DNA from: Candidatus Woesearchaeota archaeon | GTDB taxonomy: Archaea > Nanobdellota > Nanobdellia > Woesearchaeales > UBA12501 | Direction of reading: 5' to 3' | DNA: 64,000 nucleotides | Assembly (NCBI GenBank): GCA_030651375.1 | Contig: JAUSFM010000009.1 | Location: forward strand, 65,345 to 129,344 | Shown: positions 19,808 to 62,477 of the stretch, piece by piece | How positions within the stretch are numbered: the stretch's first letter is position 1 | Layout: each line of letters opens with the position of its first letter | Translations under genes and position numbers: made by a program | Notes under the pieces: model-generated | The model's database searches: none | The model's input: the letters and a program-made list of their open reading frames with translations, nothing else | Told to the model about the DNA's origin: nothing

Positions 19808-20047
19808 CACATCCCCTTCTTTTATCTTGCACTGGCAGCACAAGCGGTGCTTTTCATCAATCCCCATTTGCGCCTCTGCTTCGGTGCGTTCCGATAGGTG
19901 TTCCATGCCGCTGATTATTTCAACGTAGCACGTGCCGCACAAGCCGTTTTCGCAGCCGAACGGTATTCCCAACTCTTTGCAGGCATCCTTGATGGGCTCG
20001 CCTTCTTTGACGTCGCGCGATTCACCGCTGGAAATGATGGCTGGCAT
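19793..20047 (-). CDS. 2Fe-2S ferredoxin
   Basis: 84 aa. Cluster-ligand pattern GCENGLCGTCYV ... CCQC typical of the Fer2 family. Confidence 0.7.
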   Translation of the reverse strand: MPAIISSGESRDVKEGEPIKDACKELGIPFGCENGLCGTCYVEIISGMEHLSERTEAEAQMGIDEKHRLCCQCKIKEGDVEIKY

Positions 20048-20177
20048 GAAACGAAAAACCGTGCTGGTGGTTTATATAGGTTGCGGAAATTGATTATTTT
20101 ACTTCAACTATTTCCCTGTTTAGTTCACCCAATCTTTGATAGAAATCCATTTATAGGGGTATCACTTTTTGTTTTTT

Positions 20178-21449
20178 ATGATTAAAAAATCTATTATCTC
20201 AACCATCTTAATACTGCACTTTATACTTTTTAGTTATCCTGTTTTAGGATTAGAGTGTCAATATACTTCAAATCTTGAATATTCAACGGAAGAAGAAGGT
20301 TGGTACTTAAATAATGAGTTATTAGATGGTTCTCCTACTCAGGAAATAATAGGGTCGAATGATAACTTTGAATCTCACAAAGTATACAACCCCTTCGAAT
20401 TTCCCATAACAGTTGAAATTAGTTATGCTACTTTTTCGACATGGTACGGGGGGAGTAATGGTGGAATTACTGGCGTTGTACCTCCTAAACAGTATGTTAC
20501 TCTAATAAGTCATCATACAGCTGATGGGCAGATTCGAGATTTAAAGTTCAAAATTATTGAACCATCCGGAATTATTAACAAACTTGAATTAGTTAAAAAA
20601 AATAAACTTGTCTGTAAAGAATGTGGTGGAAAAGTGTGCATGGATGATGGCTTAACCTGTGAAATAAATTCCGAATGTGGCAGCGGAAAGTGTATAGAAA
20701 AAATATGCTCTCCTAACAATTACTGCTATAATAATAACTGCGAATGCTCCTTTTTTGAAGTTCAATCAAAAGATAACACCAAATGTGAGAATAATAATAT
20801 CTTTTTCGGATTAACATTTATGGCGATGTTACTTATTATCGGCGCACTCATCTTCATCAAAATAATGAGGGAAAAAAGAAAAACAACACAAGCAAAAAAA
20901 GAAGCAGATGTAAAAGTTGAAAAAGAAAAACAGATAACTGCGGAGAAAGAAAGAGAAAAATACGATAAAGAACTTAGTGTTTTAAAAGAACGCCAAGATG
21001 CAATATTAAGAAAAGAAGAGGAATTGGAGGAATTAAAGAGACTTTCTAGTCTAACAAAACAAGAGAAGGAAAATATCCAAAAATTATCAGAAGAAATAAC
21101 TAAAGAAACACTTGAAATGGAGAAAAATGTAAAAAAAAGATTTGCGGTTTCTATGGAACCATATCCAAGTAAATATGCAAGCCATAGGCGTGTTTTTAAA
21201 AATCCCTATCTGGGTGGCTACGAATGTTTTTATGAAGAAAGACTTGACCCCAAAAAATATTCTTTGTCAAAGCTGGTTCATAGGTGGGTTTGGAAAAAAG
21301 CAAATGGGAGGGAACCAAAACAAGGTTATCATATCCATCACATTGATGGAGATAAATACCATAATGATGCAAAAAACCTTGAAGAAATTAAAGGAGACGA
21401 ACATTATGGACTGCATAGAAATGAAAGACAAATTCCCCCTCAATCTTGA
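20178..21449 (+). CDS. Signal/TM-anchored Cys-rich, coiled-coil protein with C-terminal HNH endonuclease domain
   Basis: N-terminal hydrophobic helix, Cys-rich module (CKECGGKVC...CGSGKC...NNCEC), TM helix and K/E-rich coiled coil. C-terminal HNH motif HIHHIDGDKYHNDAKNLEEIKGDEHYGLH. Strongly AT-rich. The track start 20169 is TTG; the ATG at 20178 is preferred. Confidence 0.6.
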   Translation: MIKKSIISTILILHFILFSYPVLGLECQYTSNLEYSTEEEGWYLNNELLDGSPTQEIIGSNDNFESHKVYNPFEFPITVEISYATFSTWYGGSNGGITGVVPPKQYVTLISHHTADGQIRDLKFKIIEPSGIINKLELVKKNKLVCKECGGKVCMDDGLTCEINSECGSGKCIEKICSPNNYCYNNNCECSFFEVQSKDNTKCENNNIFFGLTFMAMLLIIGALIFIKIMREKRKTTQAKKEADVKVEKEKQITAEKEREKYDKELSVLKERQDAILRKEEELEELKRLSSLTKQEKENIQKLSEEITKETLEMEKNVKKRFAVSMEPYPSKYASHRRVFKNPYLGGYECFYEERLDPKKYSLSKLVHRWVWKKANGREPKQGYHIHHIDGDKYHNDAKNLEEIKGDEHYGLHRNERQIPPQS

Positions 21450-21596
21450 TCTCATGCCTCTTTTTTCCATTTTTTTTATCGAGTAATCTCCCCGTTCATC
21501 CCACCCACTGGACATCCCCATTCTGCCTTAAAACCCCCGATCACAGGCCATAAGCCCCAAACTCCGTAGCACTGGACACTGGACAGATGCGCGTGA

Positions 21597-21613
21597 GGTT
21601 TATATAGTACCAC
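21597..21613 (+). promoter_or_regulatory. BRE/TATA-like promoter (gaggtttatatagtacc) for the Bro-N gene
   Basis: TATA-like octamer about 25 bp upstream of the ATG at 21629. Confidence 0.4.
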
Positions 21614-21628
21614 TCCCTCAACAAAGTA

Positions 21629-22474
21629 ATGGATCAAAAAACTGCTTTGGTCGTGTTTGAAGACAAGAAAATACGAAGAATCTGGCATAATGACGAATGG
21701 TATTTCTCTGTTGTTGATATAATCGGTGTACTCATTGATACTCCCGATGCTCGGAACTACTGGAAAGTTCTCAAACATCGTTTATTAAAGGAAGGAAGTG
21801 AAGTGGTTACAAAATGTAACCAGTTGAAATTACCCGCCCCGGATGGTAAACTAAGGGAAACCGACTGTGCGAACACCAAAAACATGTTCAGAATCATCCA
21901 AACAATACCTTCTCCCCGTGCAGAAACGTTTAAGATGTGGCTCTCTCAAGTCGGCTACGAGCGCGTCCAAGAAATCGAAAATCCGGAATTAGGCCAAGAC
22001 CGCATTAAAAAATATTATGAGCTGAAAGGCTATCCCCAAGACTGGATTGACAAGCGCCTTCGGGGAATTGCTATTCGCCAAGAACTCACCGATGAATGGA
22101 AAAACAGAGGCGTTGGTGAACAGCGTGAGTACGCCATCCTCACCAATGAGATTTCACAGGCAACATTTGGCGTTCCCATCAAAACGCACAAGGAAATCAA
22201 AGGCCTTGACCCGAAATTCAAGAACCAAAACCTGCGCGACCACATGTCTGACCTCGAACTTATTTTTTCAATGCTGGGCGAACGGCTGACCACTGAAGCA
22301 GCGCGCAAGAAAGACGTTCACGGTTTTACCGAGAATCTTGAAACAGCACAAGAAGGCGGCGCGGTTGCCGGCCGCGCGCGTACCGACGCTGAAAAGACTT
22401 TAGGCATTGCTGTTGTTTCTCCAGAAAATGCACTTGATATTGTTCACCAAAAGAAGCGCATAGAAAAAAAGTGA
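21629..22474 (+). CDS. Bro-N domain protein (DinD/antirepressor-like)
   Basis: N-terminus LVVFEDKKIRRIWHNDEWYFSVVDIIGVL fits the Bro-N/KilA-N pattern. C-terminal charged domain. Confidence 0.6.
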   Translation: MDQKTALVVFEDKKIRRIWHNDEWYFSVVDIIGVLIDTPDARNYWKVLKHRLLKEGSEVVTKCNQLKLPAPDGKLRETDCANTKNMFRIIQTIPSPRAETFKMWLSQVGYERVQEIENPELGQDRIKKYYELKGYPQDWIDKRLRGIAIRQELTDEWKNRGVGEQREYAILTNEISQATFGVPIKTHKEIKGLDPKFKNQNLRDHMSDLELIFSMLGERLTTEAARKKDVHGFTENLETAQEGGAVAGRARTDAEKTLGIAVVSPENALDIVHQKKRIEKK

Positions 22475-22499
22475 TTACCCAATTGCTCGTCGCACATCG

Positions 22500-22787
22500 C
22501 TATTTTCTCACATATGTTGCGAGTGTTCTTTCAACTTGATTTCCAGGATGTCTTAAATCGAGAGGGTGACCAATCTGGCGCAGGCGTCCAACCAGTTGGC
22601 GTTTGGTATAATAACCCTCGATCGTGCCACCTTTTTGATCCCTGAACCAAATTTCGAAACCGCGCGGTTCATGATTAAGAAATGGTGGAACATATGCGAC
22701 TGAAAGTTTTGTTCTGCCCTCTTCCGTTCGTAAATACCAGCTTGTATCTGTATTTTGTCTCCAGTACGCTTGTTCCATAAGGTTCAC
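22500..22787 (-). CDS. Hypothetical protein
   Basis: 95-aa ORF, 4-nt overlap with the aEF-1beta stop. Confidence 0.3.
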   Translation of the reverse strand: MNLMEQAYWRQNTDTSWYLRTEEGRTKLSVAYVPPFLNHEPRGFEIWFRDQKGGTIEGYYTKRQLVGRLRQIGHPLDLRHPGNQVERTLATYVRK

Positions 22788-27951: not shown

Positions 27952-28407
27952 TTATTGATCCGGCCCATAGTATCGCCGATTGCCCGGAAGCACCATGCTA
28001 TTGAGTCGGTGTTCGCCAACAGAGGTATATTCTTTTGTTGGGGTGGGTATCTTTTCCGGCTCGTCTCCCACGGTAAAACAGCCGCCATAGAAGCATTGGC
28101 AGGTGTCTGCGTAGGAGCAGGTGCAGCGCTGGTAGCAGCCGTACTTGGTTCTGAATCGATATTGTGACGGTGTTTCATCCATCAGCCGCTTGACTGCAAG
28201 CGGTGGCTGTTCGCTGACGAGATTTCCCGTCAGGCTCTGGCTTCCTCCTGCAGGAAGCTCGTTCGTGTATTCCACCAGCACATAGTTTGTTTGTGGTGTT
28301 TCATTGATTGACTGCGAGTATTGGTAGATGCCGCCCAGCGCAACTGCTGCGGTGATTAAGACTAACAGAAGGTCACGGTGGTCACTCATTCCTCTTTTTA
28401 TACTCAT
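27952..28407 (-). CDS. Small secreted Cys-rich protein
   Basis: N-terminal TM/signal, C-terminal CxC-rich segment (CYQRCTCSYADTCQCFYGGC). Last gene of the minus-strand sigma-like operon. Confidence 0.4.
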   Translation of the reverse strand: MSIKRGMSDHRDLLLVLITAAVALGGIYQYSQSINETPQTNYVLVEYTNELPAGGSQSLTGNLVSEQPPLAVKRLMDETPSQYRFRTKYGCYQRCTCSYADTCQCFYGGCFTVGDEPEKIPTPTKEYTSVGEHRLNSMVLPGNRRYYGPDQ

Positions 28408-28473: not shown

Positions 28474-29826
28474 CTATTTCTGGTACAAATCAGGATATTC
28501 TTTAACAAGCGCTTGGCGCATTTTTTCCTTGGCGCGGTTTTCGAGCTGCCTCGTTCGCTCACGGGTGATGCCCAACTGGTCTCCAATTGCCTCGAGTGTC
28601 ATTGGCTCTTCGCGGAGCAGGTGGCAGTCAACAATATATTTTTCGCGTTCGTCCAGTACATGAAGTACCCCGCGAATTGCCTGATTGGCAAATGGGGCGT
28701 TGGGAGTAATCATCTCTTCCGGGGTTGGAGCATTTGACGCAACCCTTGAATATAAATTCTTGTCGTCAGCTGTTAGGCTGTCAAGAGACGCATCACCATC
28801 TGCCAAGCGCTGCTGCATGCCTCTTACTGACTTTGGCGAAACGTTAAAGTGTGCAGCAATCTCTTCAGGTGTTGCTTCATGGTCTTCATATAATAATTCA
28901 GGCATACGGCTTGTTCCTACTTTTGGCAGCAGATAATATAATTTTCTTTGCACTTGGCTTGTTCCTATCTTCACCATTCTTCTGTTCGCTATGTTGTCAG
29001 CATAGATTTGTGCTTTTATCCAATGCACGGCATAGGTGATAAAATTCTTGCCTTTTTTAGGGTCATATTTCCGCGCGGCGCTCATGGCGCCCAAATAGCC
29101 ACTGCTCACTGATTCATCCCATGCTTGTTTGTTCGTACGAGGGTGTATGCCCATCTGATGTACGACCTGATAGACAAAGTGTACTGATGACTCAACCAGG
29201 CGCTTAACCGCTTCTTTTCCCTCTTCACTGTCCGGGCCGTACGCTTGTACCGTGTGGCCCCATTCATACTGTTGCTCTTTTAATGCCTGTCTATCTTCCA
29301 AAGGTAGTTTTTGTGCACGTTGAGGCATTGGTTTTTTCAATTTCTTAACCGGAAGCCGGACAATCTCTGCTTCCGGCGGCGTTTCATAAGGTGTCCTGTC
29401 AAATGCGGTCGTGATGAAACGTTCGAGAATAAAATCAAGTGAACTGACAGACACATGCTCATTTCGTACCTCAATCTCCCCTTTTTCTTTCAGATAGTGG
29501 AGTCTCTCTCTCACATTTGTCTCTTCGAGCTTCACGCCACCAATTTTTTGGAGTACGAGATCATCAAGCGGAATTTCAGTTGCAAAGTGTTCTGCTTTTG
29601 ATGGGTCTTCTGCAATCATCTGTGCGACAATTGAGCCGACAAAATAATAGGGCTCTTGAGAAAAAGAATACAGGGGAAATGCTCGGTCTGCATAGCGTTG
29701 GAGGCCAAGAGCAATAACTGTTTCTGTTGACATGGTATCAAGAAGTGGAAGTGCTTGCAGCTCTTTACGTAGATGAGGGGGAAGTTCGCTTGAACCCTGC
29801 TTTAAAAAAGGGAGCACCGTTGCCAT
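28474..29826 (-). CDS. Sigma-70-family-like protein with new conserved N-terminal domain (paralog 1)
   Basis: C-terminal half has a sigma region-2-like segment (FITYAVHWIKAQIYADNIANRR) and a region-4.2-like HTH (MTLEAIGDQLGITRERTRQLENRAKEKMRQ). The N-terminal ~150 aa (RAFPLYSFSQEPYYFVGSIVAQ...) is shared with the two downstream paralogs. Confidence 0.75.
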   Translation of the reverse strand: MATVLPFLKQGSSELPPHLRKELQALPLLDTMSTETVIALGLQRYADRAFPLYSFSQEPYYFVGSIVAQMIAEDPSKAEHFATEIPLDDLVLQKIGGVKLEETNVRERLHYLKEKGEIEVRNEHVSVSSLDFILERFITTAFDRTPYETPPEAEIVRLPVKKLKKPMPQRAQKLPLEDRQALKEQQYEWGHTVQAYGPDSEEGKEAVKRLVESSVHFVYQVVHQMGIHPRTNKQAWDESVSSGYLGAMSAARKYDPKKGKNFITYAVHWIKAQIYADNIANRRMVKIGTSQVQRKLYYLLPKVGTSRMPELLYEDHEATPEEIAAHFNVSPKSVRGMQQRLADGDASLDSLTADDKNLYSRVASNAPTPEEMITPNAPFANQAIRGVLHVLDEREKYIVDCHLLREEPMTLEAIGDQLGITRERTRQLENRAKEKMRQALVKEYPDLYQK

Positions 29827-29894
29827 AAAGTTCTTGTGTGGTGTTTATTATTTTAAAAAGGTGTTGGTACTGATTGGCTAATCTCGTAATTTCA

Positions 29895-31193
29895 TTATTC
29901 AAAATCATCAGGATTCAAACAACGGCGAAGATTTACTAAGGCTGCCGAATGGAGTTGGCTGGCGCGAGATTCAGTGAAACCCAAAATGCGGCCGATCTCT
30001 TTTAAATTTAAATCTTCTTTGTAATACAATCTTAGAAAAATTCTCATATTTTGTTGTGTTTCCGGCCTACAGGGAACTCCTTCTGCAGTTGAAAAGGTAA
30101 TGCTATCCAACGCGCCCCACAGCATTGATTCTTCTTGGCGTAGCGCTGCCATCGTGTCAAGATAGACACTTTTTTCATCAGGTACTACTCGGGGAACATC
30201 AATATATTTTCCATTTTTATCTTTAGGCTTATCATCCAAACTCATAACCCTTGGTGCGCTCACTTGTGCTTCGTCATATTGTTCTTGTGTAATGCCGGCA
30301 CGCTCAAGAATCTGTTCGAGTGGAATATCCGTTGTTCCTGTTTCAAACAGCAATGCAGCGCGCGCATCTTCCACATCCTTGAGCCGTTCACGCACGCTGC
30401 GAGAAACCCCATCAAGGTGGCGTAAATAATCCAATATCGTGCCGCGGATGCGCATTTCTGCATACGGCCTGAAACCACCTTGTTTTGCATCAAATTTTTT
30501 TTTGGCGTCCAAAAGGCCGAGGTATCCTTCACTGATTAAATCATCAACCTCAACGCTGCGCGGCAAGCGTTGAGCAATGCGATATGCTAAACGTTTTACC
30601 AGCGGCATATACTCCGTCGCAAACGCTTCTTCTTCGCCATCGCGTATCTCTCTCCTTTTTTTCTCTTTTGTTTCTCTTGTTTCTTTCTTCGGCATTCCCA
30701 CTACTTTTTTTTCATATTCAACCGGCAGCCCATACGTTGCATACAGCACATCCCACAAGACAGCATTAACCAACTGCAGGGGAACATTCCCTTCCGGAAG
30801 AATGCCGGCTTCTGTCAGATACGCAAGCCGTTCGTCGACGGTGTTTTTGTTTAGTCCAACTCCTCCCAACTGGGTGACGGTAAATTCGCTGTGCGGTATG
30901 CCTGCGAGTGTATCGCCAGCTTGTTTTCGTAGCTCCGGATATTCCTGCAGTGCCGCAGCAATGACTGACGCGACAAAATACGTTGGCTCGCCGGAAAAAG
31001 AATACAGCGGAAAGCTTTTGTCGACTATTCTTTCCGGCGTGCCGCGCTGGAGCAATTCGGCTCTGGAATATGCCCTGAACATTCCTCCGACAGCGAGCTG
31101 ATACGCCGTTGCTGTCATAAATGTTTCTGCGAGCTGCTCCAGACTTCTATCTTGCTGCGGTGCAGGAAAGGGGAGAACGGTTGCGGCGGACAT
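29895..31193 (-). CDS. Sigma-70-family-like protein, FliA/WhiG-like (paralog 2)
   Basis: Region 2 YMPLVKRLAYRIAQRLPRSVEVDDLISEGYLGLLDAKKKFDAKQGGFRPYAEMRIRGTILDYLR. Region 4 DLNLKEIGRILGFTESRASQLHSAALVNLRR. The N-terminal domain carries the shared FPLYSFSGEPTYFVASVIAA motif. Confidence 0.8.
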   Translation of the reverse strand: MSAATVLPFPAPQQDRSLEQLAETFMTATAYQLAVGGMFRAYSRAELLQRGTPERIVDKSFPLYSFSGEPTYFVASVIAAALQEYPELRKQAGDTLAGIPHSEFTVTQLGGVGLNKNTVDERLAYLTEAGILPEGNVPLQLVNAVLWDVLYATYGLPVEYEKKVVGMPKKETRETKEKKRREIRDGEEEAFATEYMPLVKRLAYRIAQRLPRSVEVDDLISEGYLGLLDAKKKFDAKQGGFRPYAEMRIRGTILDYLRHLDGVSRSVRERLKDVEDARAALLFETGTTDIPLEQILERAGITQEQYDEAQVSAPRVMSLDDKPKDKNGKYIDVPRVVPDEKSVYLDTMAALRQEESMLWGALDSITFSTAEGVPCRPETQQNMRIFLRLYYKEDLNLKEIGRILGFTESRASQLHSAALVNLRRCLNPDDFE

Positions 31194-31205
31194 GGCATCA
31201 CTCGT

Positions 31206-33026
31206 TTATTTTTCTAACTCAAAGAGCACTTCTTTCGGTGCAACCAGTTCTTTATCAGGTACGATTTCTCGGTCAAATGTAGAGTCTAACGCTTCTGATA
31301 CGGAATGTAATGGTGCAAAGCCTCCCGGCGATTGTTCTTCTTCCTTCTCGTCATCGCCCAAGAAGTCAATGTCCTCAATGGATCCATACGTTTTGTCTGT
31401 TTCAGAAACTATTTCTGGCCTACGCCCTGTTCTTTCTTTTGGCCTATACTGCTCATCACGTTCCCGATAGAATCTTCCAATGGGAGTTTCAGTATCCGCG
31501 CACTGCATTTCCTCAACGTGATACCCATGTTTCAGCATTGCAATGACTCCTGCTTCCAAATCCTCCCGCGTTATCAGCTCACCACTTTTTTTCGGTTGTA
31601 GGTATGCTGGTTTTTTTCCGGTGACTGCACCCAATCTATCAGTAATATCCTGCTCCGGCACGAGCGTGTACTTGGGCAACCGGTCAACCAACTCGCGCGA
31701 AACATACGGCATTCTTCTGACACCATACGATTCTTCATATTCCCGCACGAGATTCAATGCCAGTGCCGCCGGCAAAATTCTCATTTCATCAAGGTCAGGA
31801 AGGGGAATCTCACACACTTCCTGTACTCGCCGAGGATCAAAATATTCAACGCCATTAAATTCTATCGGCCTGCACCCGATATACAGCTCTGACAGCATTT
31901 TTCCGATATTTCTGCCGTGCATATCAAAGCGAGATTTTGCCGCACGATACATAAGATAGCTTGCCACTTCCTGCCCCGTTATCGGATAAAATGTTTCAAG
32001 TACTTGTCGGTATGCCTCAATAAAGTCTTTCTTTTTCAGTGTTCCGGCACTGCCTCCCATGGTTCGTAACCCACCATATCTTTTCAACAATTTCTGCATG
32101 CCATAGTTAGGAAAGCCGGGGTCAATGGAGTATTTTAATGCCGTCATGACCTCAAGGGTTTGGGTGTACGTTAATTGTTTCGGTGCCTCAGCAAGTATCT
32201 GTTTTGATGTTTTTCCTCCTTCGTCCAATTCTTTTTCAAACTCCTCTAACTCTTCAGGTGTCATCTCTGCAAGTTCGTGTTCAAATTCCCTGACAAGATT
32301 TACGCCATAACTTTTATGTTTTAATGTGTTGGGTGAACTCGTTGCTCCTATGTGATGATTTGTCGCTGGTTTTTTACGCTTGTACAGAGATTTATCAGGA
32401 ATGTCTTGTTTTAATTTTTTAAGCGCGCGTTCCAAGCTTCGTGACGGCGTGCCAAAGTCACGCGTGCGCAAAGTGACTTTTCTTTGTATGATAAAGGCAT
32501 CGTCACTATTCCCTGTTTCTTCTTCTCCTTCTGGTTTTCGGTATGCTTCAATGGGCATAATATCCGCAGCCGGATGCTCGCTTTCATAGGCTGGTGGATT
32601 TCCAAATGTCATTGCAATGAAATCTCGGAGTACAAAATCTATGGTGCTTATCGAGACATTTTGGTTAGGAAGCATTGCAATCACACCATTTTCTCTCAAA
32701 TAGTCAAGCCTCTCTCTCTCATTTGCCTCTTCCAGCCGCACACCGCCAATATTCTGCAGCACGAGACGTTCCAGTGGAATTTCAGTTGAAAATAAGGGTG
32801 CCTGTGCAGGATCGTCCACCAGTATCTGCGCAACAATGGAGCCGACAAAATATTCTGGCTCTTGAGAAAAAGAATGCAGTGGAAATGCGCGCTCTGCATA
32901 GCGTTGCAGCCCAAGACTTTGCACTGTTTCTTGTGACAGCCGGTCAAGGAGACTAAATTCTTGCAGCTCTCGTAGAGTGCGCGGAGAAATTTCTTCAGGT
33001 TTGCTGAATTGAAGAACATCGGCCAT
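31206..33026 (-). CDS. Paralog 3 of the shared N-terminal domain; diverged C-terminus without obvious sigma motifs
   Basis: First ~150 aa are about 60% identical to paralog 1 (RAFPLHSFSQEPEYFVGSIVAQ...). The 609-aa remainder is acidic/charged with no clear sigma region 2 or 4. Start set at the ATG (MADVLQF); the track start 33035 is GTG. Confidence 0.55.
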   Translation of the reverse strand: MADVLQFSKPEEISPRTLRELQEFSLLDRLSQETVQSLGLQRYAERAFPLHSFSQEPEYFVGSIVAQILVDDPAQAPLFSTEIPLERLVLQNIGGVRLEEANERERLDYLRENGVIAMLPNQNVSISTIDFVLRDFIAMTFGNPPAYESEHPAADIMPIEAYRKPEGEEETGNSDDAFIIQRKVTLRTRDFGTPSRSLERALKKLKQDIPDKSLYKRKKPATNHHIGATSSPNTLKHKSYGVNLVREFEHELAEMTPEELEEFEKELDEGGKTSKQILAEAPKQLTYTQTLEVMTALKYSIDPGFPNYGMQKLLKRYGGLRTMGGSAGTLKKKDFIEAYRQVLETFYPITGQEVASYLMYRAAKSRFDMHGRNIGKMLSELYIGCRPIEFNGVEYFDPRRVQEVCEIPLPDLDEMRILPAALALNLVREYEESYGVRRMPYVSRELVDRLPKYTLVPEQDITDRLGAVTGKKPAYLQPKKSGELITREDLEAGVIAMLKHGYHVEEMQCADTETPIGRFYRERDEQYRPKERTGRRPEIVSETDKTYGSIEDIDFLGDDEKEEEQSPGGFAPLHSVSEALDSTFDREIVPDKELVAPKEVLFELEK

Positions 33027-33059
33027 GCCTTTCACCGTTATTTTCTTCTTTTAAAAATA

Positions 33060-36000
33060 TTACTCAAGCAATCTCGGCGCCATGGCTTCAACATCGTTGA
33101 CATGCGCCAATCCGAAAAGCGTTTTTCCTGCCTTTCGCAGTTGAGTTTCAAGTGCATGATATCCTGCATCAGCAGGGACACCGTGTTGTGTCAGCACCTT
33201 CATGGTTTGGTTCTCATCAAGGAATCCAACCTGTTTCATCAATTCTGCCCGCGAATCATCGTAATGCATTGCCTGCGCCCATCCTGCTGCCAGCTTCCAA
33301 TATGCTTTTGAAAATACGTCATACCCTATGAGTTGTTGATCGCCCAACTTTTCCGTTGCCATATACTCCCGGATGTATTTTTCCAACTGTAGGTCTGGTT
33401 TTTCTCCATCAAGCAACAGCGCAGGCATGATGCGGTTCACAGGAATTTTTGTTCCATCCGATTTTTTCCATGAAAACGGCTCATACAAAATCGCCGCTGC
33501 AACAAAAGGAGAAACATGATACCCTTCTCCAGTCACTGCTTTTCGCATAGTGTCAGGGAATTGGCGTATGGCCGCGTTGATGCGCCCGGGTGTTACTTGC
33601 GGAGGCATCAATTCAGCAAGATCAGAGGTGAGCACAATATCTTCAACGCCGTAGGCGTGCTCTGCGTCATTGCCTTTCAGGACAATCTGGTCGGCTGCAA
33701 ATCTGCCTGATCTTCTCATGTACTCAAAGAGCCGCCGTGAAAATTCCGGCTGATATGCGGCCACAAGCAACGCGACGGCTTCTTCTTCATTCTTCGGTGC
33801 AGTGCTCAGGCGATACTGGTACACACCATCTTCGGCGCGCGGTGTTATTCGTGCGCCGAGAGAGCCGGATCTTCGTTCTGGCTGTACTAACACCGGTGTT
33901 TCTTCTCTTTTTGAAGGTGTTGTTCCTGCGGGAGCTGGTGCAGTATATCCTGTTGTTTCTGCCGCCGATGCTGGTGCAAGTGGTGCCTGTTCTCCTGCAG
34001 GCGATGCAACCTTTTCTTCCAGCGAGGGTATCACCACTTTTGTTCCCTTGGGAAGCCCGACAACATCTTCAACCGTTGTGCGTCCCGTCAATGATTCCAA
34101 TGCATAATCAAACGCTTTGAAATAGACTTCACGTTGGCGCGCCTTGATGTCTGATGCCGTTGGAGTGCCTGATTCAGGCGTAAAAAGATTTGTTTTTGAA
34201 TACACCTGTAGAAGTTCTGGGCCAAGAATAGCGTACAGTGCCGCATGGTTTGGCGGTGCTAATGGCTCTGGCTTAAGGTCAACTTCTGCCCATAATTTAA
34301 TTTTCAATGCCGTGCTTGCGGCGATGCCTAATCCTGATGCTTTTAATCTATGGGTATTGACAAACTCGTGCAGTTTTCCAACAGCTTTTTTCGTGACTTG
34401 AGCTGCAACAACATATTCCACAACCATGTTTGGCACATACAAATGTTGGTCATCAAATCGTATCCGGCGCTGTGCTGTATTATAGTATCCTTTCTCCAGA
34501 ATTTTATGCCGTAACGCCGTTGCGAGGTACGCCATTGCGTATGTGTCGTCGAATGGATGGGTTGATGATGAAGTGGCAGGAGCGGGAACTTCTGGGCGTG
34601 CTGAAGCTGGTGAAGCAGGAGCAGGAACCGAAACAAGTACGTCATCAATTGATGCAGCTATTGGTGTTGGCGCAGGAGCTGGCGATGGTGCCGGAGGAGG
34701 AACTGGTATTGGTGAGAGAGCTGGAGATGGCGCAGGGGCAGGTCGAGTGGCTGGAGAATCTACATTCGCGGATTCTGCCGCAACATAGTCACCCAACAAT
34801 GTGCCGCCTGCTTTCATCGTGTCGAAGGCGAGGTTGAATGATTCACGGAATCGCTGGCGGACAGGCGTGGCTGGTTTAGCGAATTTTTCAACAGCGGCAA
34901 AGTATTTTTGTCCTTGTAATCTTTGGATGGCTTCAAATGGCACACCAAAAAATCCAGCTATTTCTACATCCAAATATTTCTTTACATCTGTAAGATCACT
35001 CAGATGGATGGCAAGAATATCCTCCATCATTACTCCTGCAGGTGCATCATGATGATGGCGCAGCAATGGATGCTCTTTTCCTTTCCATTGTTGAAACGCC
35101 CCATCGGTTATTCTGGTTTTTAATAGTTCACGAACTTTGTAATACCGGGGAACATCCCCACTTTTAATCGGCTTGTGGCCGGGAAGCGTAATCATATCTG
35201 TCGTCGGATCATACAGCTTTTGATAGCGTATTCCCCTTTCTATTCCCTGCGCAAGATAGCGGAGTGGGTCGGTGAGAAGTAAATCATCGGACAGAACGAA
35301 TTTTCTTCCGGCAGATGCTGCTGAAGCGGCAGGATGTGGTGGTGCGGGCGCATCCGGTGCATCCGGTTCAACCACCGTATCAATCGTTGCGGCACGAGCT
35401 GCTATTCTCTGCTCTTCTGCTTCTGATGGTGCTTCACCAGCCACTGCGCCGCCGGTAAGCTCTTGATACCATACTGACTGGTGCTCCCGCACAATCGGAA
35501 ACAGTTGAGGAAGGAGATTATTGATGCTTGGCCAGTCAAGGTCAACGGTCTTTGCTTTTTTCAGTAAACCATCTTCCACTGCGCGATGTGCAAGGGCAGA
35601 ATCAATGCCGAGAGATGCTTCCAAATCAGCGTAGGTTCTGATGCGAACATCGCCCGCTGATTTGTAAAGCCCAAAGAATTTGACATCAAGGGGAGAGAAT
35701 TTTTGATGGAGGGAAAAGGGAACATGGCCAAAAGCGTCTGCATAGACTTCGTTAACATAGCGTTGGTATGACGTATAGCGAGCGTTATATCCATCGCTTC
35801 CTTCTCGTGCTTGGTGTGGGGTTACTGCAAGCAAAGGAATATCGGCAGGGGATGATGGGGTCAGTGTTTGGCTGTGCGCAACAAGTTGTTGGTGCTCGGC
35901 ATCGTAGCCAAGCATAATTCCTTCAGCAGTGTACTGGCCGGTTTGCACGAGGTGGCTAAACACAGCCTGCGCAAGTTCTTCGAGCAGGGGACGTGAAGGA

Positions 36001-37169
36001 ACAGAACGGGGAGAGGGAGGTGGAGCAGGAGTTACAGGAGCTGGTTCAACCGCTGGTACAGATTCAGGCACGCGTGGCGCTGGTTCAGCCACGCGTGGTG
36101 GCACTTGTTCTGGTGTTTCACTTTCATATTCTTTTACCGCCTTTTCCAATGCTGTGTCAAACACTTCAAAAAATACTTTTTCCTGCGCGGTTTTAAACCG
36201 GCTTGCATCTCTTGGCTTGTATTCGTGTTTCGGATTAAATACACCTGAATTATGTGCGTTGATTATTTCATCTTCAGAAGCACCAAATAAATCTGCAAGT
36301 TCATCGAGTGATAACGATTGTGTTGGTGTTTTACCAGGAGCACTTTCGCGCCATAATTTTACTTTGAGCACGTTTCGAGCTTCTGCACCGTCGTCTTTTC
36401 GTAATCCTTTACTATCCATATACTTGTGTGCTGTTCCACCTGTTGTAAATCCTGCTAAACTTTTTGCAATGCCATATCCAACAATATGGTCCGAATCATA
36501 TCTTATTCCTTCTGCAAATTTTATTTGTTTTCGTTCACCGTCATAATAGTCTTTGCGTATTCGTTCGTATAACCGTTCGACAAGAATGTCCTGCATATCT
36601 TCAGCTGTTGTATCTTTTGGCGGCGTCGGTTCTTTGTGAAGGGGTGCCGGTGCAATTGGTTCAGGTTCACGTTCACGAATAGGCGCTGGCACCGGTACAA
36701 CTATCTCGGGTGGTGCTGCCCTAGCCGGAGCTGCTGAAGCTGCTGCACGCTCCTCTCGTTCCGCCAAACGATTTCGTGTGCGTTCTGCCAGAGAATCCGT
36801 GCTCAATTCAATAACTTCAATCTGGCGATCGGATTGTTGAACATACGTGAGAAACAACGGTTGAGAAGAATCGCGCGCTTCAACATAGTGTGCTGCCTCT
36901 GAAAAAACACCGAGCGGAATGCCATTTGCTGCAACACCGACATCTTTTCCAACTGATTTTACTTCAATGGCAGTTCGTGAGATGAAACCATCAAGGCCGA
37001 CGATGCCGGTCGATCCGTGGTATGTTTTGTCAGGTGTTCCGTGCAGTTGAATTTCGAGTGGCCTGCCAAGTAAGGCAGCAGTAACTTCGTCAATGGTTGT
37101 TGTGGCACTCGTTGCAGAATCAAGCGGTATAATGCCTGCCCTTCCTACCTTAAACCAGTGTTCAGCCAT
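33060..37169 (-). CDS. Giant modular protein: PD-(D/E)xK-like N-terminal domain, internal ~150-aa repeats, Pro/Ala-rich linkers
   Basis: 1369 aa. The N-terminus has a restriction-endonuclease-like motif GIVGLDGFIS...AIEVKSVG (D...EVK). Two related modules (ERLYERIRKDYYDGERKQIKF...VFFEVFDTALE versus LEKGYYNTAQRRIRF...VYFKAFDYALE) are separated by PAPxP-rich linkers. First gene of the operon. Confidence 0.6.
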   Translation of the reverse strand: MAEHWFKVGRAGIIPLDSATSATTTIDEVTAALLGRPLEIQLHGTPDKTYHGSTGIVGLDGFISRTAIEVKSVGKDVGVAANGIPLGVFSEAAHYVEARDSSQPLFLTYVQQSDRQIEVIELSTDSLAERTRNRLAEREERAAASAAPARAAPPEIVVPVPAPIREREPEPIAPAPLHKEPTPPKDTTAEDMQDILVERLYERIRKDYYDGERKQIKFAEGIRYDSDHIVGYGIAKSLAGFTTGGTAHKYMDSKGLRKDDGAEARNVLKVKLWRESAPGKTPTQSLSLDELADLFGASEDEIINAHNSGVFNPKHEYKPRDASRFKTAQEKVFFEVFDTALEKAVKEYESETPEQVPPRVAEPAPRVPESVPAVEPAPVTPAPPPSPRSVPSRPLLEELAQAVFSHLVQTGQYTAEGIMLGYDAEHQQLVAHSQTLTPSSPADIPLLAVTPHQAREGSDGYNARYTSYQRYVNEVYADAFGHVPFSLHQKFSPLDVKFFGLYKSAGDVRIRTYADLEASLGIDSALAHRAVEDGLLKKAKTVDLDWPSINNLLPQLFPIVREHQSVWYQELTGGAVAGEAPSEAEEQRIAARAATIDTVVEPDAPDAPAPPHPAASAASAGRKFVLSDDLLLTDPLRYLAQGIERGIRYQKLYDPTTDMITLPGHKPIKSGDVPRYYKVRELLKTRITDGAFQQWKGKEHPLLRHHHDAPAGVMMEDILAIHLSDLTDVKKYLDVEIAGFFGVPFEAIQRLQGQKYFAAVEKFAKPATPVRQRFRESFNLAFDTMKAGGTLLGDYVAAESANVDSPATRPAPAPSPALSPIPVPPPAPSPAPAPTPIAASIDDVLVSVPAPASPASARPEVPAPATSSSTHPFDDTYAMAYLATALRHKILEKGYYNTAQRRIRFDDQHLYVPNMVVEYVVAAQVTKKAVGKLHEFVNTHRLKASGLGIAASTALKIKLWAEVDLKPEPLAPPNHAALYAILGPELLQVYSKTNLFTPESGTPTASDIKARQREVYFKAFDYALESLTGRTTVEDVVGLPKGTKVVIPSLEEKVASPAGEQAPLAPASAAETTGYTAPAPAGTTPSKREETPVLVQPERRSGSLGARITPRAEDGVYQYRLSTAPKNEEEAVALLVAAYQPEFSRRLFEYMRRSGRFAADQIVLKGNDAEHAYGVEDIVLTSDLAELMPPQVTPGRINAAIRQFPDTMRKAVTGEGYHVSPFVAAAILYEPFSWKKSDGTKIPVNRIMPALLLDGEKPDLQLEKYIREYMATEKLGDQQLIGYDVFSKAYWKLAAGWAQAMHYDDSRAELMKQVGFLDENQTMKVLTQHGVPADAGYHALETQLRKAGKTLFGLAHVNDVEAMAPRLLE

Positions 37170-37251
37170 AAGTCCCCAGCAAGCATGTGGAGAAGAAGTG
37201 TTTAATAAGGCTTTATATGGTGGAGAATATATGAATAACCATCCTTAAAAA

Positions 37252-49319: not shown

Positions 49320-52300
49320 TTAAAATTCAAATTTTTTATCCTGCTCTCCTTGTGCTGCTTCTCCTTCTTCAAACAAATATTTTTTCTTGTGCGGCAATTT
49401 CTGTTTCAGTTTTTCAACAAGTGTCTTGCTTTTCTGGCGGACGAAACTCAATGCGTCACTCGCAATGCCCAAACTGCCGATGCTCGTTTTCAGGCGCGCT
49501 GCAGAGTCGCTGTCAAGATGCGTTATTTTCCGGTAGCTGAAACTCCCCAGCCCAAGTGCACCGAGCGTGAGAAGGGTGAGAATCGAGCCCAGTCCAAACA
49601 TGCTAAACTCTCCGTCCTCTTTGACAAATCCAAGCGCTTTTCCAACGCCGGCGATGCGGCCGGTTAGCAGATCGTTGGATACCGTTTCTGTTTGTTCTGC
49701 TGTTGCAGCGCCGGTCACACCATCTCCTCCTGCTGTTTCTGATTCAGTTGCTGACTCGAACGATGATTCTGATTCTTGCGCAGCAGCTTCACCATCTGAT
49801 GATGTTTCACTCGTCGTGCCGATACTGCTTATCGATGCAGGTGCTGATGCGGGCAGGGTGCTTGCCGGTCTGCTCTGCTGCTGACTCTGTGTTGGCCCGC
49901 CACCGCCTCCTCCGCCGCCACCGGCTGCTCCTCCTCCTGTGCTTCCTGTTCCAGTATTTCCCGTGCTACTTGTATTCGGGGCGCTCAGTGAGATATTAAG
50001 TATGCCTTCTTCTGAAAGCTTGGTGAAGAGCACACCATCGCAGGTTGCATTGTACCGATACAGCCCTTCTGCGGTAAAACTCTGCACACGTTCATAGCGA
50101 TTGCTTGCTGCATTGAACGCTGCAATACTCGTGTCGTTGTTGACCGTTAAGAAACAAACCGCATCAGTAATCACCTCATTTGACGTCGAATTGCGGTAAT
50201 TCAGCTGCATCGTCACCGTCTGATTTGGCTGTTTTGGCGAATCACTGCTCAACACAACCCCCGCATTTGGCTCAACGGTGAAGCTGCTGAAATGGTTGGC
50301 GGTAAAGCTGACAGCGTTGTCCGTGCATACCACATTAATGCAGGCCGTGCTGCTATTTTCGCTGCATACGAATCCTGCTGCGCGCACTTTGTCAGCGGCC
50401 GTGTACACTGCTTCTGCGGCGACAATCTTTGTTGGGCACGTCACATTTTTTATGGTCACGCGAGCTGTGTTGTTATATTCACTGCCAAGCATCGTTGTAT
50501 TAACGCTGACCAGCCGATCGCTCAATCGTATCGCATTGTCAAAATCCCTGCCGCGTGCGTCCTTGCCGCCGGTAAAATTGACCGAGCCGCGCTCTTTTTT
50601 CTCGATGAAAAGGTCTGAACCATTTGCGAGATTTGGCGCTGCGTTGAAGTTCGTAGTGTTGCCGTCAAATGTTGCAACGGAAGGAAGTTGGCTCAACACC
50701 ATAGTAAGCGCGGTGCTCATTGTTTGGCTGAGATTGATTATTTTGTTTTGTTTTGTATACGTTCCCGCCTCAACCGTGACGGTGTGCGGCGTCAGAATAT
50801 CATTCACTGCTCCGTATACTCCTTCGACGAGCAGGAAGTTCATTGCACTTACATTTTTTGTGGTGATGGTTGAGCCATTCTGAAGAGTTATAGTCATATT
50901 CGTCAGGAGCGGCTGGCTGTTGTTATTCGTTGTGTTCACGGAAAGGTACCAGTCCAGTTCAACGCTTGTCGTGGTGTTTGCCTCAATTGTTTTCGACGTG
51001 GTTGTTGTGTTAATCAGCTGGTTTCGCCCGCCAAACCCTTTCATGCCCAGCGCGCCGTTTGTTGCAGAATCATTCACCTGTGCATTCGCCGCGCCATCAA
51101 ACAATATGCCCGTCGAGAAATTCGTGAGCGTGCACGATTTCACGCGCGCGTTGTTGGTGGTCATCGCCATCCCTGTTCCCACATTCGTATTCTTGCTGAC
51201 GAATGAAAATCCGTCGCAATCAAGTGTGATGTTGTCTGCTGAAAGCGTCATACAGGTTCCATTTCCTCCATACTCAAGCGACGCATTCATCAGAATGTTT
51301 CGGTTTGGTTTGGTATACTGTTTGCACGCCGCCACAAACGGATATATCGTTATCGTATCCTGCGCAGCAGCAGGAGTTGTATCCGACGCACTGCATGACC
51401 CGTTCCAGTCAATGCTTTTTTCTGTCGTGAAAAACGTGGTGTACTCGTAATATGATGATGTTGCATTGTATACCATAGCATGAGACACATTTTCGATGGT
51501 AATCGTGCAGTTTGCGTTTCCCACAATAGGCGCGCCGGTCGTATTCGTATAATTTGCAAAGAAGGTTATGTCGTCATCAACCGTGCTGTTTTTGCTGCCG
51601 CGCTGCGCATCATTGTCGTCAAAAATAGTCAGCACCGCGCTTGCGCTTGTGGTGAAGTTTCCATAAGCGTCAAAGTTTGTGACGTTAAAGGTGGTATTGT
51701 CTCCTGATGAGCTCATAACCATACAACTGGCACATTTTTTTCCATCGTCAAAAATAAATCCATTAAGCACTGGCGGATTTTTCATCGTGACAACAGCCGT
51801 TGCATTAAGGCGCGGCTCGCGTGAGATGTTGATAATAATGTTTCCCGGCTTGATACTGATTGACTCGTTGAGATTCATTTTCACAAAATTAACCGCGCCG
51901 GGATAGGCAACCAGCCCATCGCCATTTCCAATTTGCGCGCCGGCCAGCATTTCAAGATTTTCCAGCGTTTGCGCAGCGAAGTTTGTTGTCGCTGAATTGT
52001 TGAACTGGCTGTATTTGATCGGCTCTTGAATTGTTTGAACCAGCTCAAGCGCGTCAATGCGCAGGAACGTGAGGCCGGTGCCTGCATCAGCTATTTTTTT
52101 CCCCGTGTTTCTCAACAGCACACGCAGTTCATCAACACGCAGAATACGATTCTGGAACTGCTGTGAGAATTGGTTTGCGAGCGCAACAAGTCCGGCAACA
52201 TGCGGTGTTGCCATGCTGGTGCCTGACAACGTGGTGTACCGATTGTTGTTGCATACTTGTCCGCTTCCGCCGGCAGGGCAGTTTTGCTGTGCCGTTGAAT

Positions 52301-53390
52301 TTATCGATGAGCCCGGCGCGAGAACATCAAGAAGGATATTTCGATTGGTGAATGCTGAAATTGCGTCTGCTTTTGTCGTCGAGCCAACCGCCGTGACATT
52401 GGAAAGGCATGCCGGAAGCGCAATGCCACCCGTGTTGGCGCTGTTGCCTGACGCCGCGAGCATCATAATGCCCTGTCCATACGCCGTGTTCGCCGCGTCA
52501 GTGAACGCAAGAGTTTGTCCATTTGCATCACAGCTTGCGGCGTCGCTGAAGATGCCCGTGCCCAAGCTCATGGTGATGACATCAATGCTGTAATTGTTTT
52601 TGTTTGCAATACAAAAATCAATCCCTTTGAGAATATTCGAGAGATCCGTGCTGCTGTCCTTGCCAAATACTTTGACCGCGACAATGCCTGCGTTTTTTGC
52701 CACACCCACCAGATTATTTCCTCCTGCTGTGGCCGGAGCGTTTGCCGCCACAATGCCGGCAACATGGGTGCCATGGCCGTTTTCATCGGTTGCGTTGCCA
52801 AACAGTTCGGTCTGATTATTTGGGCAGCACGCCGAGCCGTTGTTAGTACAATAACAGTATTGCGCAACAATATTGTTCTTCAGGTCAGGGTGAGTCGGGT
52901 CAATGCCCGTGTCAAGTACGCATACACCTCTCCCTGTCCCGGTGATGTTTGCCCCTCCCACCACTAATTGGTGCACCGTGGTTGCTTTGATAAGCGGTAC
53001 GCTTTGCTCAAGCAGCAGGTGCATTTTCGTGTCAGGAATGATTGCCGCAACGTTAGGATTGTTCTGCAATTCAGCCAGCGTGTCCTTTGGCACGGTCGCA
53101 GCAATCATATTAAGCATTTCAAATGTTTCAATATTTTTTACGCCCGGGGCATCGAGCGAGTCGCTGATGACGCTGTCTTGTTTTTCACGAACACCCTCTT
53201 GTACTGTTGCGAGTGACATTCCTGCTGTGGAAGCAGTCTCTTTGAGTACAATAATCACATCATTGGTTTGCTGGGGGACGAGGTTCACCGCAGTGTCTTC
53301 AGCGGTGCTTCCAGCGGTAAAAAGAGCCAGACTAATAAGTACAGTAAAAAGAACTACCATCCTCTTTTTTTGAATGTCCATCACCTTCAT
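49320..53390 (-). CDS. Giant secreted subtilisin-like serine protease (S8) with Ser/Thr/Gly-rich stalk and C-terminal TM anchor
   Basis: Catalytic triad motifs DTGIDPTHPDL, HGTHVAG and GTSMATPHVAG. More than 40 NxS/T sequons in the ~700-aa extension, poly-Gly (GGGAAGGGGGGGGG), and a TM helix FGLGSILTLLTLGALGLG near the C-terminus. Confidence 0.85.
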   Translation of the reverse strand: MKVMDIQKKRMVVLFTVLISLALFTAGSTAEDTAVNLVPQQTNDVIIVLKETASTAGMSLATVQEGVREKQDSVISDSLDAPGVKNIETFEMLNMIAATVPKDTLAELQNNPNVAAIIPDTKMHLLLEQSVPLIKATTVHQLVVGGANITGTGRGVCVLDTGIDPTHPDLKNNIVAQYCYCTNNGSACCPNNQTELFGNATDENGHGTHVAGIVAANAPATAGGNNLVGVAKNAGIVAVKVFGKDSSTDLSNILKGIDFCIANKNNYSIDVITMSLGTGIFSDAASCDANGQTLAFTDAANTAYGQGIMMLAASGNSANTGGIALPACLSNVTAVGSTTKADAISAFTNRNILLDVLAPGSSINSTAQQNCPAGGSGQVCNNNRYTTLSGTSMATPHVAGLVALANQFSQQFQNRILRVDELRVLLRNTGKKIADAGTGLTFLRIDALELVQTIQEPIKYSQFNNSATTNFAAQTLENLEMLAGAQIGNGDGLVAYPGAVNFVKMNLNESISIKPGNIIINISREPRLNATAVVTMKNPPVLNGFIFDDGKKCASCMVMSSSGDNTTFNVTNFDAYGNFTTSASAVLTIFDDNDAQRGSKNSTVDDDITFFANYTNTTGAPIVGNANCTITIENVSHAMVYNATSSYYEYTTFFTTEKSIDWNGSCSASDTTPAAAQDTITIYPFVAACKQYTKPNRNILMNASLEYGGNGTCMTLSADNITLDCDGFSFVSKNTNVGTGMAMTTNNARVKSCTLTNFSTGILFDGAANAQVNDSATNGALGMKGFGGRNQLINTTTTSKTIEANTTTSVELDWYLSVNTTNNNSQPLLTNMTITLQNGSTITTKNVSAMNFLLVEGVYGAVNDILTPHTVTVEAGTYTKQNKIINLSQTMSTALTMVLSQLPSVATFDGNTTNFNAAPNLANGSDLFIEKKERGSVNFTGGKDARGRDFDNAIRLSDRLVSVNTTMLGSEYNNTARVTIKNVTCPTKIVAAEAVYTAADKVRAAGFVCSENSSTACINVVCTDNAVSFTANHFSSFTVEPNAGVVLSSDSPKQPNQTVTMQLNYRNSTSNEVITDAVCFLTVNNDTSIAAFNAASNRYERVQSFTAEGLYRYNATCDGVLFTKLSEEGILNISLSAPNTSSTGNTGTGSTGGGAAGGGGGGGGGPTQSQQQSRPASTLPASAPASISSIGTTSETSSDGEAAAQESESSFESATESETAGGDGVTGAATAEQTETVSNDLLTGRIAGVGKALGFVKEDGEFSMFGLGSILTLLTLGALGLGSFSYRKITHLDSDSAARLKTSIGSLGIASDALSFVRQKSKTLVEKLKQKLPHKKKYLFEEGEAAQGEQDKKFEF

Positions 53391-57990: not shown

Positions 57991-58112
57991 TGGCCTGTTT
58001 TTTTATAAAGTTTGTTGTCCTCGAATATCCGTATCTATCTCCCCCTCTATTATTCCAAACAGAATAAACTGGGCAATAACCTTTTTAAAAACCTGCTTCA
58101 GTGAATCGAATC

Positions 58113-60345: not shown

Positions 60346-60510
60346 TTCGGTCATTTCAGATAAGTCCGCTTTTGAATTTATTTTTCTGCCTTTTAATCCC
60401 GCCAAAACTATCTTTACCAATACGTTCCCTTCCTCTAACTGTATTCGTTTAGGTCTCATTTGATCTATCTCACCGAAAGCTTTATATATACATATACATT
60501 AATACTCTCT

Positions 60511-60723
60511 ATGTCGAAACTTATCAGCGTCTCGGATGATGTGTACACAACCCTTAAAGAGATGAAGGGTGAGGAAAGCTATTCTGTTGCCATAAGAAAA
60601 CTCTTTACCCCTAAGTCGAATAAAGAGAAGATACTCAGTTTTTACGGGAAAGGTGGGATTGACAAAGAAATGATAAAAGAGGTTCAAAAATCATGGAAAC
60701 AGTGGTCAGAAAAATATGTTTAG
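60511..60723 (+). CDS. Putative VapB-like antitoxin
   Basis: Small ORF (MSKLISVSDDVYTTLKEMKG...) overlapping the PIN gene start. Confidence 0.4.
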   Translation: MSKLISVSDDVYTTLKEMKGEESYSVAIRKLFTPKSNKEKILSFYGKGGIDKEMIKEVQKSWKQWSEKYV

Positions 60724-61076: not shown

Positions 61077-61081
61077 GGCTA

Positions 61082-62359: not shown

Positions 62360-62477
62360 ACAAAAGAACTAAGTATAGATGTTTATATAGTTTGTTGGGG
62401 TGGAGAATAAAACCCCCTGAACGTTTAAAAATCAACCACAACAATATTTATAAATATGCTCCCGTGCCACCGACGAT

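Follow-up and report, generated by a model that had tools for sequence, protein, structure and literature searches.

This work deals with a gene encoding a modular protein of 1369 amino acids (aa), hereafter the giant, located on the minus strand of a stretch of 64,000 nucleotides (the window) from contig JAUSFM010000009.1 of a Candidatus Woesearchaeota archaeon. Comparison of its sequence and predicted structure with those of its relatives led us to propose, with moderate confidence, that the giant is a multivalent cytoplasmic scaffold based on helix-turn-helix (HTH) modules, which would act together with the sigma-70-like proteins encoded downstream as their dedicated partner, regulator or adaptor. 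As the gene lies directly upstream of sigma-factor genes, its product may be the missing partner of those factors; this part of the proposal follows from the recurrent pairing of family members with genes for sigma-like proteins carrying an N-terminal domain that we named sN, and from fusions of two domains of the giant (the repeat module R and the C-domain) to transcription-initiation domains on archaeal contigs. The scaffold character is suggested by the combination of a cytoplasmic protein, independent HTH modules on flexible tethers and a variable copy number of these modules. An earlier annotation of this DNA (the original prediction) had already raised the idea of a scaffold, which fits the modular build, the linkers and the pairing with sigma genes.

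The open reading frame (ORF) is uninterrupted and starts with ATG, and an identical protein is deposited at NCBI as 'MAG: hypothetical protein Q7R76_02810 [Candidatus Woesearchaeota archaeon]' (MAG, metagenome-assembled genome), encoded on a contig of 195 kb. The window is archaeal and chromosomal, as it encodes NMD3, RtcA, a DUF7343 regulator, diphthamide synthase, an archaeal-type PEP carboxylase and PolX, and the GC content of the gene (0.46-0.49) is the same as that of the remainder of the window. The gene of the giant is the first of four on the same strand, which follow one another at 24, 12 and 68 bp; the third and fourth belong to the sigma-70 family. Its earlier description as the first gene of a sigma-like operon was thus sound. 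The cluster comprises the following features:

37201..37218, minus strand: AT-rich TATA-like boxes ATATAAAG / TTATTAAA, 32-49 nt upstream of the ATG.
33060..37169, minus strand: whole gene of the 1369-aa modular protein, with the stop codon at 33060-33062.
31206..33035, minus strand: downstream gene 1 (609 aa), starting 24 bp past the stop of the giant; sN (aa 4-171) and a C-terminal region without recognised domain, no sigma domains.
29895..31193, minus strand: downstream gene 2 (432 aa); sN and FliA/WhiG-like sigma-70 regions 2-4.
28474..29826, minus strand: downstream gene 3 (450 aa); sN and RpoH-like sigma-70 regions 2-4.

Judged from their sequence, the TATA-like boxes are a possible archaeal promoter of the gene cluster. 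A scan with bacterial promoter and terminator models, which are not expected to suit an archaeon, gave nothing above chance.

The 432- and 450-aa proteins matched Sigma70_r2 and Sigma70_r4 of Pfam, and in NCBIfam they matched FliA/WhiG-like and RpoH-like families, both below the trusted cutoffs. What these two proteins have in common with the 609-aa protein is sN, an acidic N-terminal domain of ~165 aa (isoelectric point, pI, 4.6-6.1; 56% and 39% identity between paralogs) with the pattern FPLYSFS.EP.YF ... IGGV.L.E...ERL.YL, for which we found no match in Pfam or the PDB. Matches of the sN profile to RecA were held to be spurious, since they involved multi-copy fusion chains of which no stretch was significant alone. 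We also rejected the idea that sN is a copy of a module of the giant, given hhalign probabilities of 0.5% against R and the C-domain and of 0.1% against the N-domain. Just downstream of the cluster (27952-28407, minus strand) is the gene of a 151-aa protein that has a hydrophobic anchor at its N-terminus and is rich in Cys towards its C-terminus. This gene keeps its syntenic place in a relative that does not have the four-gene block and therefore probably lies outside the system.

Relatives of the giant are scarce. An exhaustive HMMER search with aa 186-1369 against 1.84 billion representative proteins gave 22 matches, including the giant itself and four artefacts (P0020-P0023, discarded as Pro/Ala low-complexity matches), so that 18 were retained as real family matches, all from DPANN or archaeal contexts, and so few matches among so many proteins imply that the family is extremely rare. 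All named members are annotated as "hypothetical protein" and come from Candidatus Woesearchaeota or Candidatus Nanoarchaeia, and every examined contig long enough to be judged carries archaeal markers (split RpoB with Rpb5, L15e, S3Ae, Topo VI, TFS). The members are 360-1842 aa long, the minimal complete form of 611-639 aa (P0007, P0008 and P0009) consisting of the N-domain, one R and the C-domain; across homologs R occurs in one to five copies of variable number and order, and the R2 module of the window protein corresponds to the first module of P0002. A word-index search with the full giant returned only the giant and P0002, probably because the low-complexity linkers dominated, and word-index searches with the repeat alignment or the N-terminal 145 aa returned nothing, not even the giant, which reflects a limit of the index; neither result is proof of absence. 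When contigs were searched with a four-sequence alignment of the C-domain, one GTDB locus (the same as L003 below) and three metagenome loci were found, and none with a single-sequence query.

The loci were scanned with local hidden Markov models (HMMs) of sigma, sN, R, C and N, and grouped by C-domain into seven lineages sharing at most 40% identity. In five of the seven (window/L016, L001/L017/L018, L002, L006/L007 and L010), the family member lies beside a gene of the sigma-70 family; the question put in the original prediction, whether homologs co-occur with sigma-like genes, was thus answered in the affirmative. Downstream sequence was readable for six of the lineages, and in four of these the gene that follows, at 23-57 bp from the stop, begins with sN. 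The metagenome loci L016-L018 were found by C-domain similarity alone, and all three have the sN gene; as they belong to the already counted lineages 1 and 2, they confirm both lineages and add none. The full layout, with N-domain, R, C-domain and an sN gene directly downstream, is present in the window, L001, L006/7 and L010, and L017 conforms to it except for the N-domain, its gene being cut off at the 5' end. In L001 (10520-11832) the sN-sigma gene is split into ORFs of 75 and 358 aa, likely by a frameshift or an assembly error, and its near-identical counterpart in L017 (1495-2808) is intact and encodes 437 aa. The position of the four-gene block (28474-37169) is not fixed, since the block is absent from the syntenic site of L003, between the 151-aa gene and RtcA (L003 669-2215 compared); synteny between L003 and the window otherwise extends from the 151-aa gene as far as the S8 protease, with 40-68% protein identity, and this relative has a 914-aa family member at another site, beside TFS.

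Modules of the giant were also found fused to proteins of transcription initiation, as follows:

L008 8001-9218: P0017, with R at the N-terminus of an ECF-type (extracytoplasmic function) sigma factor.
L009 340-1704: P0016, a sigma-54-activator-type AAA+ protein with R.
L013 28-2193: P0019, a sigma-54-activator-type AAA+ protein with the C-domain.

The contigs of P0017 (L15e, RtcB) and P0016 (S3Ae, S15) are archaeal. In P0016 the sigma-54-interaction AAA+ domain has an intact GAFTGA motif, and R stands at the usual position of the DNA-binding HTH; in P0019 the AAA+ domain, also with GAFTGA intact, is accompanied by a Fis-type HTH and the C-domain, the contigs being too short to place. To our knowledge, sigma-54 is not known from archaea. 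The neighbours of P0017 in L008 include genes for ParA, HicB, a PLD-type nuclease and proteins resembling those of type IV secretion systems (TraC/VirB4-like, TrbC pilin), a gene content from which L008 may be a conjugative element in an archaeon of the DPANN group (Diapherotrites, Parvarchaeota, Aenigmarchaeota, Nanoarchaeota and Nanohaloarchaeota).

The giant itself is made up of an N-terminal beta-rich domain and five R-derived modules (R1, M2, R2, R3 and the start of the C-domain), arranged along the gene in this order:

36735..37106, minus strand: N-domain (aa 22-145), beta-rich, seven strands with flanking helices; N-terminal in 10 family members, fold without recognised match.
36606..36734, minus strand: Pro/Ala-rich linker 1 (aa 146-188), without secondary structure and with lower predicted local distance difference test score (pLDDT).
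36117..36605, minus strand: R1 (aa 189-351), copy 1 of the repeat module.
35997..36116, minus strand: Pro/Ala-rich linker 2 (aa 352-391), by composition.
35445..35996, minus strand: M2 (aa 392-575), a divergent R with an insertion, whose nearest relative is in P0010.
35295..35444, minus strand: Pro/Ala-rich linker 3 (aa 576-625), by composition.
34785..35294, minus strand: R2 (aa 626-795), an R of the 'YLAQ..IE.R ... RFRES' subtype.
34554..34784, minus strand: Pro/Ala-rich linker 4 (aa 796-872), by composition.
34074..34553, minus strand: R3 (aa 873-1032), an R copy 28% identical to R1.
33789..34073, minus strand: linker 5 (aa 1033-1127), with lower Pro/Ala content and its end predicted to be disordered.
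33063..33788, minus strand: C-domain (aa 1128-1369), the best-conserved part of the family; a divergent R followed by an all-helical extension with two further HTH-like pairs.

Iterated profile searches over the family delimited R (~150 aa) to aa 190-350 (R1), 633-790 (R2) and 876-1030 (R3) of the giant, and collected 29 instances among 17 proteins. The relatedness of the copies was evident from pairwise BLAST of segments (aa 204-342 against aa 891-1025, 28% identity, E=2e-12), and hhalign against the R profile placed in the same family M2 (probability 94.7%, E=5.7e-8, 141 columns) and the first half of the C-domain (89%, E=2.3e-6). The duplicated ~150-aa modules reported earlier are therefore genuine, in five copies rather than two. 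The same is true of the flexible linkers, where Pro and Ala make up a fraction of 0.44-0.52, compared with 0.12-0.18 in the domains; we found no tandem repeats at the DNA level in the linkers. The R2 subtype is the one fused to the ECF sigma of P0017 and to the AAA+ activator of P0016. The giant has no membrane-spanning segment or signal peptide (best 19-residue Kyte-Doolittle mean 1.06) and no cysteines, and it is acidic overall (pI 5.8), with acidic R1, M2 and C-domain and basic R2 (pI 8.7) and R3 (pI 9.2).

AlphaFold2 models were built from family alignments for aa 1-352 and aa 1095-1369. The former reached a mean pLDDT of 85.4 (~90-97 in the domains, 62-70 in the linker) and a predicted template modelling score (pTM) of 0.57, a value implying that the N-domain and R1 are independent of each other; the latter had a pLDDT of 85.6 and a pTM of 0.83. 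The N-domain was modelled with seven strands, one internal helix and flanking helices. R1 opens with a long helix, a small three-stranded sheet and two helices plus a strand, an arrangement resembling a winged helix, and in its second half has three helices, the last two forming an HTH on LSLDELADLFGASEDEIINAHNSG, followed by a long C-terminal helix. The model of the C-domain opens like R1 and continues with extra helical pairs. When the R profile was compared with all PDB sequences, 30 of the 32 matches were to sigma region 4, at marginal E values of 0.07-0.2, with profile positions 80-127 aligned to RpoD 550-593 and to region 4 of Taq SigA. In hhalign comparisons with the local sigma-like proteins, this stretch of R aligned to the HTH of their region 4.2 (E=0.0045, probability 7.7%, 27 columns). 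Weak matches to Pfam HTH families were found in six of the 29 repeats, and one of the 29 matched Sigma70_r4 (E=0.04). We conclude that R contains HTH-type elements; its descent specifically from sigma region 4 is possible.

Despite the confident AlphaFold models (pLDDT ~85), the giant had no match in Pfam, NCBIfam, PHROG, PADLOC or the PDB. In particular, Pfam and NCBIfam showed no Sigma70_r2, r3 or r4 in it, and the local sigma HMM matched the neighbouring genes only. An NCBIfam match to PspA (E=8.5e-4) was dismissed because it fell in a Pro/Ala-rich linker region (aa 299-395) and was far below the cutoff.

From these data we envisage that one transcript would encode the giant together with the downstream proteins, each of which begins with the acidic sN, and that the giant would bind them through its conserved terminal domains, its R modules or both. 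The R modules, each with a winged-helix-like unit and a three-helix HTH most like sigma region 4.2, would contact DNA or further components of transcription, and given the modular and flexible build, one long molecule could hold or position several sigma-like factors. The analysis shows the architecture, the homology of the repeats, the rarity of the family and its archaeal/DPANN hosts, the gene pairing and the domain fusions; the binding of sN, the binding of DNA and the role in transcription are what we infer for the giant. A more specific version, which we offer as a tentative and somewhat doubtful one, is that of a hybrid regulatory module of DPANN archaea among the Woesearchaeota/Nanoarchaeia, in which sigma-70-like factors of bacterial derivation (and ATPases like the sigma-54 activators) would have been fitted with the archaeon-specific adaptors sN, R and C-domain, the giant serving as a multivalent docking platform that would tether several sigma-like factors via sN and couple them to DNA or to the archaeal transcription machinery.

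Several observations weigh against the proposed partnership. The interaction between the giant and the sigma-like proteins is deduced from genomic context and weak HTH similarity, and the likeness of R to region 4 is marginal (E ~0.1; hhalign probability 7.7%), so that it may reflect a generic HTH only. The host has an archaeal RNA polymerase, which puts the activity of the sigma-like proteins itself in question. sN bears no similarity to R, the C-domain or the N-domain. In two lineages, those of P0004 (L003-5/L015) and P0014 (L011), no sigma gene lies within 6-10 kb. Finally, the putative recognition helices of R show no conservation of basic residues and the pI of the modules ranges from 4.2 to 9.7, so charge gives no sign of DNA binding; the overall acidity of the giant together with the lack of conserved basic residues in its modules speaks against it.

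These last points bear also on an alternative that we consider unlikely, namely that the giant is an autonomous multivalent DNA-binding protein, a chromatin organiser or transcription factor whose five R modules would bridge or coat sites, the adjacency to sigma genes reflecting only shared regulation or a shared horizontal origin and no physical partnership. HTH-like elements in every module, the replacement by R of the DNA-binding HTH of a sigma-54-activator-type ATPase (P0016), the basic R2 and R3, and the two lineages in which the family has no adjacent sigma gene all speak for it. The pI of the whole protein, the acidic R1, M2 and C-domain, and the lack of conserved basic positions in the putative recognition helices do not, and unless there is a functional link, it would be difficult to account for the tight pairing with a downstream sN gene, repeated at 23-57 bp in separate lineages. 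In bacteria, a sigma gene is as a rule co-transcribed with that of its antagonist, and this habit lends some appeal to a further possibility, to us a rather improbable one: that the modules are protein-binding decoys, for instance surfaces like sigma region 4, which would keep the sigma-like proteins inactive until a signal arrives, with no contact to DNA. The acidity of sN, set beside the basic character of about half of the R modules, would suit such sequestering, as would the lack of any identified anti-sigma factor in genomes of DPANN archaea (PMC8204110). However, Pfam and NCBIfam detected no ASD/zf-HC2 (ASD, anti-sigma domain), RsbW-type kinase or FlgM in the giant, and its having no cysteines excludes a zinc-binding ASD, a class defined by a Zn-binding HxxxCxxC. 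That R is joined in cis to an ECF sigma in P0017, and to AAA+ activators, also fits an adaptor or targeting domain better than it does an inhibitor.

The original prediction had gone in another direction, reading the N-terminus as a PD-(D/E)xK domain of the Hjc/NucS type and the giant as a nuclease or scaffold of a mobile element or of a defence or conflict system. The letters in question, D59...E69-V-K71, do exist, and the alpha-beta-beta-beta start of the N-domain loosely resembles the PD-(D/E)xK fold. In an alignment of the N-domains of 10 family members, however, D59 is kept in six and E69 in seven, and K71 is present in the window protein alone, the other nine having F, F, L, E, E, Q, V, M and E. 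The likeness to these nucleases is thus limited to the D...ExK letters and a mixed alpha/beta N-terminal domain of similar size, whereas the invariant or near-invariant residues of the giant's family are Tyr, Gly and Asn (Y50, Y109, G60, N82), not acidic residues or Lys. Neither the N-domain profile nor its 10 members matched any nuclease family among Pfam and PDB sequences at E<=1-10, the whole giant had no nuclease match in Pfam or NCBIfam, and the Foldseek matches of the N-domain model (pLDDT ~90) in the PDB were not significant and included no nuclease. The giant is not a recognisable nuclease.

A mobile element or a defence system was likewise not supported. In favour of this reading, the related genome has no four-gene block at its syntenic site and has a family member elsewhere, and two tyrosine recombinase (Phage_integrase) genes are found just upstream of the pair formed by P0007 and its sN-sigma gene in L006/L007 (L006 1853-2710; L007 1-881 and 1701-2558), which hints at an integrative element that can carry this pair, or lie next to it, in the L006/L007 lineage. 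The sigma-like proteins also matched MzaA of PADLOC weakly, through generic sigma regions only. On the other side, PADLOC gave no match for the giant, the 609-aa protein or the 151-aa protein, PHROG gave none for the giant, and no relatives of the giant were found on IMG/VR viral contigs. The search for att-like repeats flanking the block yielded a single 9-mer and nothing longer than 9 nt; there is no integrase in the window and no GC anomaly at the block, and the neighbours are housekeeping genes syntenic with the relative. Taken together with the unconserved catalytic residues, these results make a mobile or defensive endonuclease very improbable, and we regard the nuclease and mobile-element interpretation as largely wrong.

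Other features of the window are worth recording. In a low-GC island at 20001-22500 (0.365 against ~0.47), one gene (20169-21449) encodes 426 aa with an HNH_3 endonuclease domain and another (21629-22474) a protein with a Bro-N domain; the island is probably what remains of a virus or mobile element. A second giant ORF (49320-53390, minus strand, 1356 aa) encodes an S8 subtilase with an I9 propeptide and a weak C-terminal match to the Nup98-type autopeptidase (S59); it is conserved in the related MAG with 51% identity. At 58101-59327 on the plus strand we found a gene for a MetK S-adenosylmethionine synthetase of the bacterial/eukaryotic type, with three S-AdoMet_synt domains, a probable bacterial acquisition that is in line with reports of bacterial genes in DPANN archaea. 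A second low-GC stretch (60001-62400, 0.398) overlaps a 425-aa ORF (61082-62359, minus strand) with no Pfam match.

Sigma factors define the initiation of transcription in bacteria, and archaea use TBP, TFB and TFE instead. According to Castelle et al. 2021 (PMC8204110), sigma-70 genes are widespread among Woesearchaeota; the authors found no anti-sigma factors and called the controlling mechanism unclear. A conserved partner gene directly upstream, together with sN on the sigma-like proteins, provides a testable candidate for the control of archaeal sigma factors, and the fusions of R to an ECF sigma and to sigma-54-activator ATPases suggest a lineage-specific domain toolkit for adapting bacterial transcription parts to archaea. 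We found no paper in the searchable literature on the giant partner family, the sN domain or the R module, and as the giant did not pass the domain tests for known anti-sigma factors and sigma factors, the motif and profile tests for PD-(D/E)xK nucleases or the test for PADLOC systems, we regard the family as new at the level of sequence and structure families; it offers three confidently predicted domains without a recognisable structural neighbour. A conserved partner of "archaeal sigma factors" would surprise specialists in archaeal transcription; if the docking platform proved true, it would be the control element that has long been sought for these factors, and a transcription-factor scaffold of a new class.

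Among known systems, the sigma/anti-sigma (or co-factor) pairs of bacteria are similar in the tight linkage of a sigma-70-family gene to the gene of a non-sigma partner, both on one strand and a short spacer apart, and in that the arrangement recurs across lineages. They differ from the present case in its archaeal host, which has an archaeal RNA polymerase together with TBP and TFB; the partner here, of 600-1800 aa and with repeated novel modules, has no known anti-sigma domain, zinc site or membrane anchor, and the sigma-like proteins carry the novel ~165-aa sN. The likeness is therefore one of gene logic only. At the level of the module, the closest known structure is sigma-70 region 4, the HTH that binds the -35 element (PDB 1ku3, RpoD 550-613): the second HTH of R with its preceding helix is the best PDB match of the R profile, and the same HTH aligns to region 4.2 of the local sigma-like proteins. 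Nevertheless, the scores are marginal (E ~0.1) and no match of R reaches the Pfam threshold for Sigma70_r4. R also differs from region 4 in its shorter recognition helix, in an additional half at the N-terminus that resembles a winged helix, and in the long helix at its C-terminus. The bacterial enhancer-binding proteins of the NtrC family, which combine an AAA+ domain bearing GAFTGA with a C-terminal Fis-type HTH, offer a third comparison. Although the giant of the window has no AAA+ domain, and P0016, in contrast to the NtrC family, is encoded on an archaeal contig, both P0016 and P0019 have the AAA+ domain with an intact GAFTGA motif, and in them R and the C-domain, respectively, are found in or after the position of the DNA-binding HTH.

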